Shown: piece by piece, positions 4,918-17,426 of the stretch
Layout: the number at the start of each line of letters is the position of its first letter
Numbering within the stretch: position 1 is the first letter of the stretch
From: Escherichia coli
Lineage (GTDB): Bacteria > Pseudomonadota > Gammaproteobacteria > Enterobacterales > Enterobacteriaceae
Reading direction: 5' to 3' (one strand)
NCBI RefSeq assembly: GCF_024298765.1
Contig: NZ_CP101210.1
Length of the DNA: 64,000 nt
Notes under the pieces: model-generated
What the model was told of the DNA's origin: nothing
The model's database searches: none
Seen by the model: the letters and a program-made list of their open reading frames with translations, nothing else
Made by a program: the position numbers and the translations under genes

Positions 4918-5709
4918 TTACATCGCGTTCAGACGTTTTTGCGCCTGTTTAGCGCCATCAGTACCAGGGTATTTACTGATAACCTGCTGGTATACGGCTT
5001 TCGCTTTTGCGGTGTCACCTTTGTCCTGCATGATGACGCCGACTTTAAACATCGCATCTGCAGCCTTCGGTGACTTCGGATAGTTTTTCACTACCGAAGC
5101 AAAATAATACGCCGCATCATCTTTTTTACCCTTGTTGTAGTTTAACTGACCCAGCCAATAATTGGCGTTTGGCAGGTAAGTTGAATCAGGGTAATTTTTG
5201 ATGAAATTCTGAAATGCCACCATTGCGTCATCCTGGCGGGATTTATCCTGCACCAGCGCAATAGCTGCATTGTAATCCGTGTTTGCATCACCGCTTTTCA
5301 CCGGCGCGCCAGCATTCGCAGTACCAGCATCAGCTGTCGGCGTCGTTGATGCCGCCACACCGCTTTGATCGCCGCTGGTTGATTGCGCCGCTGCACCACC
5401 GCTGCTGAGGCTGTCGATCTGCAACAGGATCTGCTTTTGCCGCTCCACGACCTGATTCAGTTGATACTGATTTTCCTGAATCTGACCACGCAGGGAATCA
5501 ATATCGGATTGATTATCAGAGAGTTGTTGCTGGAGTTGGGTTAAAAGCTGGCTGTGAGCATTAGAAATACGCTCAAGTTGAGTGACGCGGTCTTCGACCG
5601 AGCCTGAGCCGACACTACTGATTGGTGCCTGAGCAAAAGCGGCCCAGGGGGCCGCTATACCAACCAGTAACGACAGACTCAATAGTTGATGTCTGAAGTT
5701 ACTGCTCAT
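4918..5709 (-). CDS. cpoB: Cell division coordinator CpoB (YbgF), TPR periplasmic protein
   Basis: 263-aa ORF with signal peptide, coiled-coil and C-terminal TPR repeats; last gene of the tol-pal cluster. Confidence 0.93.
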   Translation of the reverse strand: MSSNFRHQLLSLSLLVGIAAPWAAFAQAPISSVGSGSVEDRVTQLERISNAHSQLLTQLQQQLSDNQSDIDSLRGQIQENQYQLNQVVERQKQILLQIDSLSSGGAAAQSTSGDQSGVAASTTPTADAGTANAGAPVKSGDANTDYNAAIALVQDKSRQDDAMVAFQNFIKNYPDSTYLPNANYWLGQLNYNKGKKDDAAYYFASVVKNYPKSPKAADAMFKVGVIMQDKGDTAKAKAVYQQVISKYPGTDGAKQAQKRLNAM

Positions 5710-11149: not shown

Positions 11150-12289
11150 TTAGTACAGAGAGTGGGTGTTACGTTCAATATCTTCTTTGGTGATACGACC
11201 GAACATTTTCCAGTAACACCAGGCGGTGTAGAGCAGAATGATCGGTACCAGAACCACCGCAACCCAGGTCATGACGTTAAGCGTCAGCTGGCTGGAAGTT
11301 GCATCCCACATTGTCAGACTTGCGTTCATCATGGTGCTGGACGGCATCACAAACGGGAACATTGCGATACCGGCAGTCAGGATGATGCAGGCCAGCGTCA
11401 GGGAGGAGAACACAAACGCCCACGCGGCTTTATCCATACGTGCAGTCAGGATGGTCAGCAGCGGCAGAACCACACCCAGTGCCGGAATAGCCCACAGAAT
11501 TGGCGTGTTGTTGAAGTTAACCAGCCATGCGCCAGCTTCACGAACCACTTCTTTATTCAGCGGGTTAGAGGCTGCGTAATGGTCCATTGTCGATTTCACG
11601 ACATAACCATCGATACCGTACATCACCCATACGCCAGCCAGTGCGAAGCAGACCAGCGTCACCAGTGCCGCCACCTGAGCCGTTGCACGGGTACGCAGGT
11701 GCAGTTCGCCCACGGTACGCATTTGCAGATAGGTTGCGCCCTGAGTAATGATCATCCCTACGCTCACCACACCTGCCAGCAGGCCGAACGGGTTAAGCAG
11801 CTGGAAGAAGTTACCGGTGTAGTACAGACGCAGATATTCATCAACGTTGAATGGTACGCCCTGCAACAGGTTACCGAACGCTACACCAATCACCAGCGGC
11901 GGAACGAAGCTACCAATGAAGATGCCCCAGTCCCACATGTTACGCCAGCGGGTTTCTTCAATCTTGGAGCGGTAATCAAAACCGACCGGACGGAAGAACA
12001 AAGACGCCAGCACGAGGATCATCGCCACATAGAAGCCGGAGAACGCAGCGGCATAGACCATCGGCCAGGCAGCAAACAGTGCGCCGCCTGCGGTGATCAG
12101 CCAAACCTGGTTACCGTCCCAGTGTGGTGCGATGGAGTTAATCATAATTCGACGCTCGGTGTCGTTACGACCGAGGAAACGGGTGAGCATGCCCACCCCC
12201 ATGTCGAAACCGTCAGTGACTGCAAAACCAATCAGCAGAACGCCAACCAGCAGCCACCAGATAAAACGCAATACTTCATAATCGATCAT
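11150..12289 (-). CDS. cydB: Cytochrome bd-I ubiquinol oxidase subunit II
   Basis: 379-aa polytopic membrane ORF downstream of cydA. Confidence 0.95.
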   Translation of the reverse strand: MIDYEVLRFIWWLLVGVLLIGFAVTDGFDMGVGMLTRFLGRNDTERRIMINSIAPHWDGNQVWLITAGGALFAAWPMVYAAAFSGFYVAMILVLASLFFRPVGFDYRSKIEETRWRNMWDWGIFIGSFVPPLVIGVAFGNLLQGVPFNVDEYLRLYYTGNFFQLLNPFGLLAGVVSVGMIITQGATYLQMRTVGELHLRTRATAQVAALVTLVCFALAGVWVMYGIDGYVVKSTMDHYAASNPLNKEVVREAGAWLVNFNNTPILWAIPALGVVLPLLTILTARMDKAAWAFVFSSLTLACIILTAGIAMFPFVMPSSTMMNASLTMWDATSSQLTLNVMTWVAVVLVPIILLYTAWCYWKMFGRITKEDIERNTHSLY

Positions 12290-12304
12290 TTGACGACTCC
12301 TGTC

Positions 12305-13873
12305 TTAGCGTGCCGGCTGAGTAGTCGTGGAAGACTGCTCAAAGTGATAGCGACCGGTTTTCAGGCTGCTTGGGCCGAGGCGTGCAAACTTGAACATTAA
12401 GAACAATTCTGCCACCAGGAACAGGGTATACAGGCCGCAAATCAGCACCATTGAGAAGATGAGATCGCCTGCGGTCAGTGACGAATTCGCCACAGCTGTC
12501 GGCAGCACTTCACCGATAGCCCACGGTTGGCGGCCATATTCAGCCACGAACCAGCCCGCTTCTACAGCAATCCACGGCAGCGGAATACCGTACAGCGCGG
12601 CGCGCAGCAGCCATTTTTTCTCGCCAATGCGGTTGCGGATGACACTCCAGAAAGAGAGCGCAATGATTGCCAGCAGCAGGAAGCCACACGCCACCATGAT
12701 ACGGAACGCGAAGTACAGCGGCGCTACACGCGGAATGGAGTCTTTGGTTGCCTGTTGAATCTGAGCTTCAGTCGCATCAGCCACGTTTGGCGTATAGCGT
12801 TTCAGCAGCAGACCGTAACCGAGATCTTTCTTCATGCTATTGAACTGGTCACGAACGGCCTGGTCAGTAGAACCAGAACGCAGTTGTTCGAGCAGAGAGT
12901 ACGCCTTCATCCCGTTACGAATGCGTTCTTCATGCTGCACCATCAGTTCTTTCAGGCCGATAACTGGAGTATCCACGGAACGCGTTGCAATGATGCCCAG
13001 CGCGTAAGGGATCTGGATCGCAAATTTGTTCGTCTCCTCTTCCTGATCAGGAATGCCGAACAGAGTAAAGGCAGCAGGTGCAGGTTGCGTTTCCCACTCG
13101 GCTTCGATAGCAGCCAGTTTGGTTTTCTGCACGTCGCCCATTTCGTAACCGGATTCATCACCCAGAACAATAACAGACAGAACGGCAGCCATACCGAAGC
13201 TGGCAGCGATAGCAAAGGAGCGTTTAGCGAAGGCGAAGTCACGACCTTTCAGCATATACCATGCGCTGATACCGAGGATGAACATTGCGCCAGTCACATA
13301 ACCAGAAGCTACGGTGTGAACGAATTTCACCTGAGCAACCGGGTTAAGCACCAGCTCGGAGAAGCTCACCATCTCCATACGCATAGTTTCAAAGTTGAAA
13401 TCGGACGCGATTGGGTTTTGCATCCAGCCGTTTGCAACCAGAATCCACAGTGCGGACAGGTTTGAACCGAGCGCCACCAGCCAGGTGACACACATATGCT
13501 GAACTTTACCCAGACGATCCCAACCGAAGAAGAACAGACCTACAAAGGTGGATTCGAGGAAGAAGGCCATCAGACCTTCGATTGCCAGCGGCGCACCGAA
13601 GATATCCCCTACATAGTGGGAATAGTAAGACCAGTTAGTCCCGAACTGGAACTCCATGGTCAGACCGGTAGCCACACCCAGAGCAAAGTTGATACCAAAC
13701 AACTTGCCCCAGAACTTGGTCATATCTTTATAAATCTGTTTGCCGGAAAGAACGTAGACCGTTTCCATAATGGCCAGCAGGAACGCCATACCGAGCGTCA
13801 GTGGCACAAAAAGGAAGTGGTACATCGCGGTCAAGGCAAACTGTAAGCGCGACAGTTCGACTATATCTAACAT
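12305..13873 (-). CDS. cydA: Cytochrome bd-I ubiquinol oxidase subunit I
   Basis: 522 aa from the second Met ([28 protein letters not shown]), with the Q-loop region. Confidence 0.95.
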
Positions 13874-14450
13874 CATGACTCCTTGCTCATCGCATGAAGA
13901 CTCCGAGAGTGAACCCCGTTAGAAAGGGTCACACGCATGCCCCAATACAAAATTATTTGCTCGCCTCTATCGTTGCCATTTCATCAAAAGAGGAAAAGAC
14001 AATGATAAAAAAGTTACAAATGTGTTAATGAATAAACCAAATTGATCCCGTAATTATATTACGCCGCAAAATCCTTACAATAAACAGGTTTTTATTGAGC
14101 AAATTTGCATTTTTCGACAGTGATCAATTTATAGCGAAATTGTCACGATCTCACCAATTTGATCTACAACAATTTATCGTGTTTTGCAGATTTTTTTCAA
14201 GAATTAAAAATTGATTTATATCAAAATCAACCATATATGTTAATTATGTGTGAATCATGAGCCACTGGTAACTTTATTGTTAATTTATTGTAACAAAATA
14301 GCACAGTAAAATTACCCACATGGAAATATATAGATAAAAAACCAGTATTTTATTTAACAGAGCCGCTTTATCGACTTTTTATAATACTAATTAGTTAGAG
14401 TAGCTACTTTATTGCCATTTTACATAACATATTTTTATCAACGTTAATTG
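13874..14450 (-). promoter_or_regulatory. cydA upstream regulatory region (complex promoter, expected FNR/ArcA/H-NS control)
   Basis: Long AT-rich non-coding leader upstream of cydA; individual sites not resolved by eye. Confidence 0.45.
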
Positions 14451-15201
14451 ATTGTTGTCTTTATGAGCAACGTACTGTAAATCCGTCACTTATTGTTTCA
14501 TTGGTAATAATCACAAGAAGAAATAGATACCTTAGGTATAGTCAGATGGAACAAGGATTTTCAAAATAAAATATATATGGTATTAATATTTCCCGATCTG
14601 TATTCAATGATTAGCTCAAAGATTGAAAATCAAGAGAAATTGTTATAGCAGTGATACGAAACAACAAAACGGAATGATTGCCAGCCGTTAGAAAACACCG
14701 GACACTCTCGTGTAAAAAGCTACCCTGTCTATGGATATAGCGATATCAACTCATCAAGCGTGGACTGAATGATATTCAGCTCCATATGGGCGGCAACCTG
14801 GAGGATAAACATGATTTCGCCGTTGGAATCAAGGTTGTTCTGCAATATCTACCAGACTGCTTCAATTTATCTGTTTTGGCAGTGCCATAATCTTAATTTA
14901 ACTATTTGAAGATGATGATATTGTAAGATGCCAGAAATTTAGTAATCTGGAGAACCATGTTTACGATCACTAAATATTAAAGTAATAGTCGATAATTCAG
15001 TAACACATCGGGTAATATAATGTATTGATACATAATCATATTAAAAATTCGTGATTAAATAACATAAGAATATGTTTTATTATCATTAAAAAACCTTCTA
15101 TTTCCATCATCCTTAAGATAATAGAACAGTGAATGATGGATAACTTCACCAGAAAAACAAGCAAGAATATAAAATTTAAAAATATGATTCCACTTTCATT
15201 G

Positions 15202-16317
15202 TTATAAAATGGCATCGTGAAGAGCGAGTTGATAATACTGCAATGCATCAGCGTCCTGTCCAGCAGTTTCATAAATTTTGGCAATGTTATAATAGGAGTT
15301 AGCGCGCATTGTCGCCGCATTTGCTCCACTGGCTAACGAGATCGCTTTACGATTTGCCCAAATTGCTTCCGCGATGTTGCCATTTTTCTGATACGCCAGC
15401 CCCAGGTTACTAAATGCCTGTCCGTAATTGCCGTCTAATTCTGTTGCCTGTTGGAAGAGTTGAATGGCTTGCTCAAGTTGACCGGTTTTATAAACAGCTT
15501 CACCTTCGCGATTATATTTTCTTGCCAGTTGAGTATCTCCACTGTTTTGCATCGCAGGTGAAGCCGGAGTTGAAGAACCCGTCGCAGGCATTATCACAGT
15601 GGCTAAATCCCTGACGCCTAATGTGGTGTCGTTAAAATTGGCGCTGGTAACAGAGTTGATATCTTCAAACTCGCCGTTTGGATTGAGTTTAAACACGGTC
15701 CAGATGTTCCCTCGTTTTCCAGCAGGGACACTATAACTACGCACCAGGGAGCTCCCTACATAAACAAACACTTTTGCCTTACTGGCAGAGAGATAATTAC
15801 TGTTGGGCAACCCTTTGTTGCTATAGTCCTGCACGGCATAGATGTAACTTTCGCCAAAATGCTTTTTGCTGATAGTGACAGTTTCTGATCCATAGCTATC
15901 CGTATCATCAACATCCAGATTAGCATCAGTCCCCTCTTTACTATCAAAATAGATATGTCCGCCAGGGAAGATCAAATGTGAATCAAGATCAAAAGGCTTT
16001 TCGCCCCAGCTCAAAACTACACGCATGCCATCCAGACTAGTCATTGCCGGACTAATCGCATAAGTCATGCCAGCACACGAACATTTGACCACCAGATTAG
16101 AATAGCCCTCTTTTTTGACGATCAATAAAGCATCTTGATCATCAGCAAATGTAGAACCCAGATTAACGCTGCCCGATGCATTTGTGGTTCCAGAAACAGA
16201 TTGTGCGCCATTGCGTTGCAGCGTCACCGATACTCCCTCAATGCGTTTATCTTTCACTGTCGCACTTAAAATATCGATATTTACATCGGCCGCATAAACG
16301 TCCGAATTTACACCCAT
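15202..16317 (-). CDS. Hypothetical protein with C-terminal TPR repeats, probably secreted; occupies the position where K-12 has mngR-mngA-mngB
   Basis: 371-aa ORF; C-terminal TPR-like helices; in-frame upstream codons encode a Sec-signal-like segment (KKKIVLPVALALMGVNSDVYA/AD) with no ATG/GTG/TTG start, so the true start is uncertain. Confidence 0.6.
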   Translation of the reverse strand: MGVNSDVYAADVNIDILSATVKDKRIEGVSVTLQRNGAQSVSGTTNASGSVNLGSTFADDQDALLIVKKEGYSNLVVKCSCAGMTYAISPAMTSLDGMRVVLSWGEKPFDLDSHLIFPGGHIYFDSKEGTDANLDVDDTDSYGSETVTISKKHFGESYIYAVQDYSNKGLPNSNYLSASKAKVFVYVGSSLVRSYSVPAGKRGNIWTVFKLNPNGEFEDINSVTSANFNDTTLGVRDLATVIMPATGSSTPASPAMQNSGDTQLARKYNREGEAVYKTGQLEQAIQLFQQATELDGNYGQAFSNLGLAYQKNGNIAEAIWANRKAISLASGANAATMRANSYYNIAKIYETAGQDADALQYYQLALHDAIL

Positions 16318-16454
16318 CAGGGCCAGAGCAACCGGCAGAACAATTTTCTTCTTGTATAAATGCTTTTACAGAACGGAGAGGGGATATTTTGCCGGGCATT
16401 ATTGCGCAGAAGATGGGAGAAAAGCAGTGGGCAAACTTTTCAGATTAGTGCCCG

Positions 16455-16481
16455 AATAAAAAAGGCCATCATAAGATGGCC
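16455..16481 (-). terminator. Rho-independent terminator downstream of sucD
   Basis: Hairpin ggccatc-ataa-gatggcc followed on the transcribed strand by a U-run. Confidence 0.6.
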
Positions 16482-16556
16482 AACCATGTCGAAACCGACA
16501 GCCCTTCGCCCCTCCTGTAGAGGGAAGCGGCGAGGGCTATTTCTTATTACAGATAT

Positions 16557-17426
16557 TTATTTCAGAACAGTTTTCAGTGCTTCACCGATATCCGCCAGGC
16601 TGCGAACGGTTTTCACGCCTGCGGCTTCCAGAGCAGCGAATTTCTCATCCGCAGTCCCTTTACCACCGGCAATGATCGCACCTGCGTGACCCATACGTTT
16701 GCCTTTCGGCGCAGTCACACCAGCGATGTAACCCACAACTGGCTTGGTAACGTGCTCCTTGATGTACGCCGCTGCTTCTTCTTCAGCGCTACCGCCGATC
16801 TCACCGATCATCACGATCGCTTCGGTCTGCGGATCTTTTTCGAACATTTCGAGGATGTCGATAAAGTTAGAGCCAGGGATCGGGTCGCCGCCGATACCAA
16901 CGCAGGTCGACTGACCGAAACCGTAATCCGTGGTCTGTTTAACCGCTTCATAGGTCAGCGTACCGGAACGGGAAACGATACCCACTTTACCCGGTTTGTG
17001 AATGTGACCCGGCTGGATACCGATTTTGCATTCCCCCGGGGTGATAACGCCTGGGCAGTTCGGGCCGATCATACGAACGCCTGCTTCATCCAGTTTCACT
17101 TTCACCGTCAGCATATCCAGCGTCGGGATGCCTTCAGTGATGGTGATAATCAGTTTGATGCCTGCATCGATAGCTTCCAGAATGGAGTCTTTGCAGAACG
17201 GTGCTGGTACGTAGATAACAGAGGCGGTAGCGCCAGTAGCAGCAACAGCTTCACGCACGGTGTTGAACACTGGCAGGCCGAGGTGGGTAGTACCGCCTTT
17301 ACCTGGGGTTACGCCGCCAACCATTTTAGTGCCGTATGCAATGGCCTGTTCTGAGTGGAAAGTCCCCTGGCTACCGGTAAAGCCCTGGCAGATAACCTTG
17401 GTGTTTTTATCAATTAAAATGGACAT
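16557..17426 (-). CDS. sucD: Succinyl-CoA synthetase alpha subunit
   Basis: 289-aa ORF with CoA-binding and His-phosphorylation loop motifs. Confidence 0.96.

Follow-up and report, generated by a model that had tools for sequence, protein, structure and literature searches.

Here we analyzed the upstream end of a gene for a tetratricopeptide repeat (TPR) protein in a 64,000-nucleotide stretch of Escherichia coli DNA (contig NZ_CP101210.1, called the window throughout), whose reading frame continues beyond its annotated start codon into what looks like a Sec signal peptide, in which no canonical start codon is found. The question raised by this locus is whether translation begins at some rare codon within the extension or whether the start codon of the gene has been mutated, in which case the protein would be mislocalised or not made at all. 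Taking together the comparison with intact alleles, the counts of each allele in complete genomes and the analysis of selective constraints, the region is very probably the orphaned 5' end, a fossil export signal, of an ordinary start-codon-loss pseudogene of a periplasmic TPR protein.

The genes sucA, sucB (annotated as odhB), sucC and sucD are located on the minus strand of the window, with sucD ending at 16557, and the TPR gene is found directly downstream of sucD after its terminator hairpin (GGCCATCTTATGATGGCC and then a T-run; 16464..16481, minus strand), which lies approximately 110 nt upstream of the position where the start codon was lost. Reading the minus strand, a TAA at 16368-16366 is followed by 16 in-frame codons up to the annotated ATG at 16317, and no ATG, GTG or TTG occurs among these: TAA AAG CAT TTA TAC AAG (16353-16351) AAG AAA ATT GTT CTG CCG GTT GCT CTG GCC CTG ATG (16317-16315). 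From ATG 16317 onward the frame continues with ATG GGT GTA AAT TCG GAC GTT TAT GCG / GCC GAT, and the translation of the whole stretch is KHLYKKKIVLPVALAL followed by MGVNSDVYA/AD (here and below, the slash marks the predicted cleavage site). The chance of finding 16 codons without a start codon is (61/64)^16, or about 0.46; the missing start is hence unremarkable by itself, and it is the signal-peptide character of the stretch that is not due to chance and needs an explanation.

The window frame is still open for 383 codons, as it is in most of the start-lost copies sampled. Strain 104, which is 100% identical to the window over the whole 1461-nt query, carries a PGAP coding sequence from ATG 16317 to 15202 that is described as a 371-aa "tetratricopeptide repeat protein". 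Scanning 14000-16800 against Rfam gave nothing at gathering thresholds, and a promoter scan of the minus strand upstream of the TPR gene, which is to be taken as weak evidence, yielded no promoter-like site. We also considered that ribosomes might enter the frame by frameshifting from a 50-aa ORF with an ATG start that overlaps the lost start codon in another frame (16399..16247, minus strand). This candidate was rejected: no Shine-Dalgarno-like sequence is visible before its ATG, alignments of its upstream region between alleles show indels, unlike those of coding DNA, and it finds no support in conservation.

The remnant of a signal peptide and the protein behind it

Comparison with intact orthologs identified the remnant of a 21-codon Sec signal peptide, (M>K)KKIVLPVALALMGVNSDVYA, at 16291..16353 (minus strand), with predicted cleavage at VYA/AD: 12 codons upstream of the annotated start and the nine that follow match the 21-residue leader of these orthologs. 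The homologous leaders are MKKIVLPVALALMGINADVYA/AD in E. coli AF3 and MKKIVLPVALALLGMNAGAYA/AD in the ST131 strain 81009, and residues 2-13 of the remnant are identical to the signal peptide of AF3 and agree with that of 81009 at 11 of 12 positions. The in-frame extension that the initial annotation had described, with the appearance of a Sec signal and no ATG, GTG or TTG, is thus borne out by the minus-strand reading and by homology to the leaders of AF3 and 81009. Its extent was narrower than proposed, however, since only codons 5-16 (12 of the 16) are former coding sequence, whereas the first four (KHLY) belong to the old 5'-UTR and include the mutated Shine-Dalgarno sequence.

The signal peptide was judged by rule-based features (charge, hydropathy and the residues at -3 and -1) and by homology. 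In the ancestral frame, a positively charged n-region, (M)KK, with a charge of +2, precedes a hydrophobic core that falls within the 7-15 residues taken as the rule (IVLPVALALM, 10 residues, mean Kyte-Doolittle hydropathy of 2.8), and the residues at -3 and -1 are small or neutral, being V-Y-A/AD in the window and A-Y-A/AD in 81009, with comparable cleavage-like sites in other orthologs (VQA/E, AFA/A and LHA/A). The one feature that the window lacks is a start codon before the peptide: AAG occupies the homologous position and no ATG, GTG or TTG is found upstream of the core, while every ortholog inspected has a canonical start and a hydrophobic leader at this place. The predicted mature N-terminus is ADVNIDIL. 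The codon taken as the start by automated annotation, that of Met13 (16315..16317, minus strand), falls within the signal peptide's hydrophobic core and is also present in AF3 and in strain E69, both of which have kept the true start.

The part of the ORF that corresponds to the mature protein (15202..16290, minus strand) comprises two beta-rich domains and three TPR repeats, and its last residues before the stop codon form a non-native tail, HDAIL. Both Pfam and the fold assign the protein to the TPR repeats: TPR_1 scored 50.5 bits against a cut-off of 27.8, TPR_12 was also matched, and Foldseek aligned the TPR region to PDB 1na0 with E=2.6e-7; NCBIfam returned sub-threshold TPR matches only. 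Scanning the N-terminal 250 residues against Pfam identified no domain, with no match for residues 22-271 even at E<=10, DUF2135 included, and the labels "YfaP-like" and YfaP/DUF2135 come from the JGI and PGAP source annotations only. Superposition of the intact ortholog, over its C-terminal 120 residues, on PDB 1na0, one of the consensus three-repeat TPR proteins that have a C-terminal capping helix, gave a TM-score of 0.86 (target-normalised) and an rmsd of 1.9 A. In comparison with these, the natural protein adds the two N-terminal beta-rich domains and the signal peptide, and the window allele is devoid of the final helix.

Start codon, Shine-Dalgarno sequence and 3' end of the window allele

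At 16351..16353 (minus strand) the window reads AAG where AF3, E69, 81009 and Pseudocitrobacter have ATG, owing to a T>A change at 16352, and the annotated ATG of 81009 aligns exactly with this AAG. A degenerate Shine-Dalgarno sequence is located at 16361..16365 (minus strand), with AAGCA in place of the AAGGA of intact alleles (G>C at 16362). The alignment of E. coli AF3, E69 and 81009 therefore shows AAGGA-N8-ATG where the window shows AAGCA-N8-AAG, and Pseudocitrobacter vendiensis, whose start is intact, has AAAGGA-N8-ATG. AF3 reads TAAAAGGATTTATACATGAAGAAAATTGTT at the start region and the window TAAAAGCATTTATACAAGAAGAAAATTGTT, and over a longer stretch TAAAAGGATTTATACATGAAGAAAATTGTTCTGCCGGTTGCTCTGGCCCTGATGGGT in AF3 compares with TAAAAGCATTTATACAAGAAGAAAATTGTTCTGCCGGTTGCTCTGGCCCTGATGGGT in the window. 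As a canonical start is found at the homologous position in these four genomes, together with candidate starts in 18 distant loci, both point mutations (16362 G>C and 16352 T>A) are, on this comparison, derived in the window lineage. Of the two possibilities raised by the initial annotation, a mutated start with a protein mislocalised or not made is hence the one that these alignments support, the orthologs having ATG at 16353 behind AAGGA and the window lineage having mutated both.

The energies of pairing with the anti-Shine-Dalgarno sequence differ accordingly. Intact alleles gave duplexes of -5.3 to -5.4 kcal/mol, with the spacing read as 6 nt, while the old site in the window gave -0.1 kcal/mol and the gene-wide background mean was -2.5 kcal/mol. 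None of the candidate starts in the window (AAG, ATT 16344, CTG and ATG 16317) pairs clearly better than this background: the values were -1.6 kcal/mol at a spacing of 2 for ATT 16344 and -1.6 for CTG 16338, both weaker than the mean, and -2.4 kcal/mol at a spacing of 12, approximately the mean, for the annotated ATG 16317.

The gene has also been altered at its 3' end, which the initial annotation had missed. Compared with 81009, the window is missing 262 bp (positions 5142-5403 of the 81009 locus, L002); the deletion junction was mapped to 15224..15227 (minus strand), and CTGGCG microhomology flanks the deleted segment. The conserved C-terminal helix, encoded by the last 21 codons, has thereby been taken away along with the gene's own terminator hairpin, and the tail now reads HDAIL*. 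A conserved tail, Y..AI.R.K, is found at the C-terminus of every ortholog inspected, and in the AlphaFold model of the intact ortholog (pLDDT 86, pTM 0.82) helix 384-396, which is among the residues removed, has a pLDDT of about 96.

Taking these changes together, the ancestral gene would have encoded a Sec-exported protein of approximately 397 aa consisting of the signal peptide, the two beta-rich domains, the three TPR repeats and the capping helix. In the window lineage, the changes of ATG to AAG and of AAGGA to AAGCA would have destroyed translation initiation, and the 262-bp deletion has removed the C-terminal helix and the terminator in this same lineage. What is left is a frame that still encodes the signal peptide but has no efficient start before it, so that gene callers fall back on Met13 and predict a 371-aa protein devoid of the export signal. 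We infer from the sequence that little or no protein is made, and that any product initiated at Met13 would be cytoplasmic and non-functional.

Population frequency, selective constraints and alternative readings

We surveyed 5426 complete E. coli genomes using diagnostic 41-mers, in which every 28-nt seed spans a variable base. The 5' coding region of the gene is present in 1112 of these genomes, being of the window type (at least 95% identity) in 539, of the ST131 type in 566 and of a third type (90-95% identity) in about 7, of which the one fetched (AF3) has ATG. The exact AAG allele was found in 540 of the 5426 genomes, the exact ST131-type ATG allele in 565, the junction of the 3' deletion in 528 and a nonsense allele, W332*, in 183. 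CFT073, LF82 and APEC O1 strains are among those with the AAG allele, and ATCC 11775 has the window-type 5' region; the window lineage is non-ST131 and includes the known phylogroup-B2 strains CFT073, Nissle 1917, LF82, APEC O1 and ATCC 11775.

Further lesions have accumulated in this lineage. The W332* allele is found in CFT073 and Nissle 1917, whose copies PGAP flags as pseudogenes, and all three W332* carriers inspected are start-lost; in MS 200-1 (one sampled genome) the gene is interrupted by an IS21 insertion. An extra lesion was detected in 4 of the 12 start-lost genomes sampled, while the six ST131-type copies sampled were all intact, and the damage added to the loss of the start codon in the lineage comprises the Shine-Dalgarno mutation, the 262-bp 3' deletion, W332* and the IS21 insertion. 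The seven sampled start-lost copies that carry no additional lesion all appear in RefSeq as an intact 371-aa "tetratricopeptide repeat protein". Strain E69 (CP089930.1, L046 at ~1955), where the gene is adjacent to sucD and has its start and 3' end intact, carries a 457-bp internal deletion that corresponds to window 16094-15637, an independent inactivation of the same gene.

To examine selective constraints, substitutions were polarised at sites where the intact alleles AF3 and 81009 agree and were analyzed by simple counting, in a sample of seven start-lost haplotypes and two outgroups at a locus that is visibly mosaic through recombination. The derived changes in the start-lost haplotypes amounted to 23 non-synonymous and 8 synonymous, over 871.7 and 256.3 sites, respectively (ω ~0.85), a value not different from neutral (binomial p=0.67), and those still polymorphic in the lineage were 18 non-synonymous and 4 synonymous. 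In contrast, 23 non-synonymous and 54 synonymous changes separate the intact alleles AF3 and 81009 (ω = 0.125), and the difference between start-lost and intact alleles was significant (Fisher p=3.4e-5). Selection has therefore been relaxed after the loss of the start codon, with dN/dS near 1 in this small sample of 7 haplotypes.

Against reading the gene as a pseudogene it can be argued that the frame is open over its 383 codons and annotated by PGAP as an intact 371-aa protein, that only 7 start-lost haplotypes and 2 outgroups, at a recombining locus, entered the selection test, and that near-cognate initiation, at 0.01-3% of AUG in E. coli, would allow trace translation. The last point leads to the proposal that one of the codons in the remnant (ATT 16344, CTG 16338 or AAG 16353) serves as a near-cognate start for a low-level exported protein that keeps most of the signal peptide. 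In E. coli reporters AUU and CUG initiate at 0.02-3% of AUG and other codons at 0.01-1%, and infC and pcnB are the only confirmed natural AUU starts in this species (Hecht et al., bioRxiv 10.1101/063800). Upstream of Met13 the frame has remained open, and the ATT-initiated product, MVLPVALALMGVNSDVYA, would keep the hydrophobic core and the VYA cleavage site. The likeness to infC and pcnB consists in an in-frame ATT near the 5' end of the frame; in those genes, however, AUU is a conserved start with a functional ribosome-binding site, whereas ATT 16344 is the ordinary Ile4 codon of the ancestral signal peptide, has no Shine-Dalgarno sequence before it, and lies downstream of the ATG in AF3 and 81009. 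Because it occurs in alleles with a true ATG, it is not a conserved alternative start. Of the two marks of a conserved non-AUG start, a conserved initiation site in orthologs and a Shine-Dalgarno sequence at functional spacing, neither was found, and anti-Shine-Dalgarno pairing at both ATT and CTG is weaker than the background. The ATT product would moreover be deprived of the positive n-region and of the C-terminal helix, and the lineage shows an ω of ~0.85 together with nonsense and IS lesions. Initiation at a near-cognate codon is hence very unlikely, and the rare start codon (ATT or CTG) that the initial annotation had suggested is disfavored by the pairing energies, the neutral evolution and the further lesions. 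It is extremely doubtful that the start-lost allele is kept at a very low, condition-dependent level of expression by initiation at AAG, ATT or CTG that is sensitive to fidelity factors such as IF3; if this were so, a trickle of exported protein would be made in the E. coli lineages that carry the allele. Trace initiation is possible, and nothing suggests that it is selected for.

Taking the annotated ORF at face value, with ATG 16317 starting a 371-aa cytoplasmic protein of retained or new function, has in its favor that the codon is canonical, that the ORF is intact in the window and that PGAP calls this coding sequence in many genomes (strain 104, LF82 and others). Such a product would nevertheless begin in the middle of the signal peptide without its hydrophobic core, would place in the cytoplasm domains that come with an export signal in all orthologs inspected, and would be devoid of the C-terminal helix; no Shine-Dalgarno sequence precedes its start, and the lineage evolves neutrally and carries secondary lesions. 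Met13 is found beside the true start in AF3 and E69, which makes it an internal residue and rules out a compensatory new start, and the short start is the one annotated by PGAP in AF3 as well, despite the intact long one, suggesting that the call was inherited from short reference proteins. The comparison of orthologs likewise gave no instance of the arrangement that would have spoken for the annotated start, namely initiation at the internal ATG without a conserved extension. We therefore regard this reading as highly improbable. The chance that a sequencing or assembly error hides a canonical start, which the initial annotation had allowed for, is negligible, as the exact 41-mer around AAG recurs in 540 complete genomes that were assembled independently, and strain 104 is identical to the window at every one of 1461 nt.

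The start-codon-loss pseudogene that we favor resembles known cases annotated as intact but N-terminally shortened coding sequences in the lost ATG, the degraded Shine-Dalgarno sequence, the additional lesions, the neutral substitutions and the fallback of the annotation to the next in-frame ATG. It differs from them in having lost a signal peptide, which makes the truncation obvious from the protein sequence; it is otherwise not unusual, and no new mechanism is implied.

Intact alleles, the wider family and the annotation of the locus

The closest intact relative of the window is AF3, in which the gene also lies directly after sucD, the two being 96.5% identical in nucleotides across the shared segment from sucD to the TPR gene. 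In the ST131 strain 81009 the gene follows mngB and PGAP annotates a 397-aa protein (MKKIVLPVALALLGMNAGAYAADVS...); the window frame is 92% identical in amino acids to this intact allele, which is WP_000725054.1 in ST131-type genomes. The intact E. coli alleles and the window share the same chromosomal neighbourhood, between the sucABCD side and cydAB, and the window allele differs by the loss of its ATG and Shine-Dalgarno sequence at one end and of the last 21 codons with the terminator at the other, as well as by the absence of mngRAB from its locus. In K-12 and ST131-type genomes mngR, mngA and mngB are located between sucD and cydA (in K-12, L006 7604-13056), and they are absent from the window (16458-16556), in agreement with a pangenome study in which, of the B2 sequence types studied, ST131 alone had mngRAB (PMC9836092). 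Whether the TPR gene follows sucD or mngB, the sequence preceding it can still be recognised as homologous.

Between the TPR gene and cydA, about 1.3 kb (13950-15300) is AT-rich, with 27-37% GC, and contains no substantial ORF; positions 14256-15224 have no counterpart in K-12 and are common to ST131-type genomes at 97% identity. Downstream of the gene in AF3 (L051 3632-4384), the PGAP annotation lists a hypothetical protein together with a short RtcB-family fragment on the opposite strand, a homolog of this segment was not detected in window 12001-17000, and the accessory island may formerly have been more extensive. The window-type and ST131-type alleles diverge very unevenly, with identity of ~85% over the first 180 nt (region 16150-16353) against 93% overall, and in strain E1 a window-type 5' end is joined to a 3' third that is ST131-like, which points to recombination mosaics within the TPR gene.

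A first protein search was saturated by near-identical E. coli sequences and was uninformative on the start codon. Orthologs were then searched for among 1.8 billion cluster representatives and by scanning the genomes of GTDB species, which identified proteins of the same architecture at 36-76% identity in Enterobacter, Pectobacterium, Cellvibrio, Nitrosomonadales, many Bacteroidota, Sulfuricurvum and Helicobacter. All 18 distant loci inspected, from Enterobacterales to Bacteroidota and Helicobacter, have a canonical ATG, GTG or TTG candidate upstream of an I.VLSA.VKD motif and have kept the C-terminal tail. The family (loci L020-L050) is patchily distributed while its architecture is conserved, and its first 250 residues have no Pfam model. 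Searching the literature for the gene and the family returned nothing specific, and these proteins appear to constitute an uncharacterised exported family.

The main value of these results lies in correcting the annotation of several hundred genomes, including the reference strains LF82 and ATCC 11775, since in start-lost genomes the gene no longer has a start codon or a ribosome-binding site, and both the export signal and the C-terminal helix have been lost. The locus presents a polymorphism of presence, absence and decay, with ST131-type genomes having the intact gene and mngRAB on one side and the start-lost lineage, including known B2 strains, on the other. The short protein models may mislead annotation elsewhere, as AF3 has the true start and is yet annotated with the short one. 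In this genome (NZ_OZ547117.1, L051 2478-3671) the PGAP coding sequence starts at the internal ATG 2514 (MGINADVYA...), while an intact AAGGA and an ATG at 2478, 12 codons before the annotated start, are present and the full signal peptide is encoded from there. The start call in AF3 thus looks 12 codons too short, and was possibly carried over from truncated reference proteins of the start-lost lineage.
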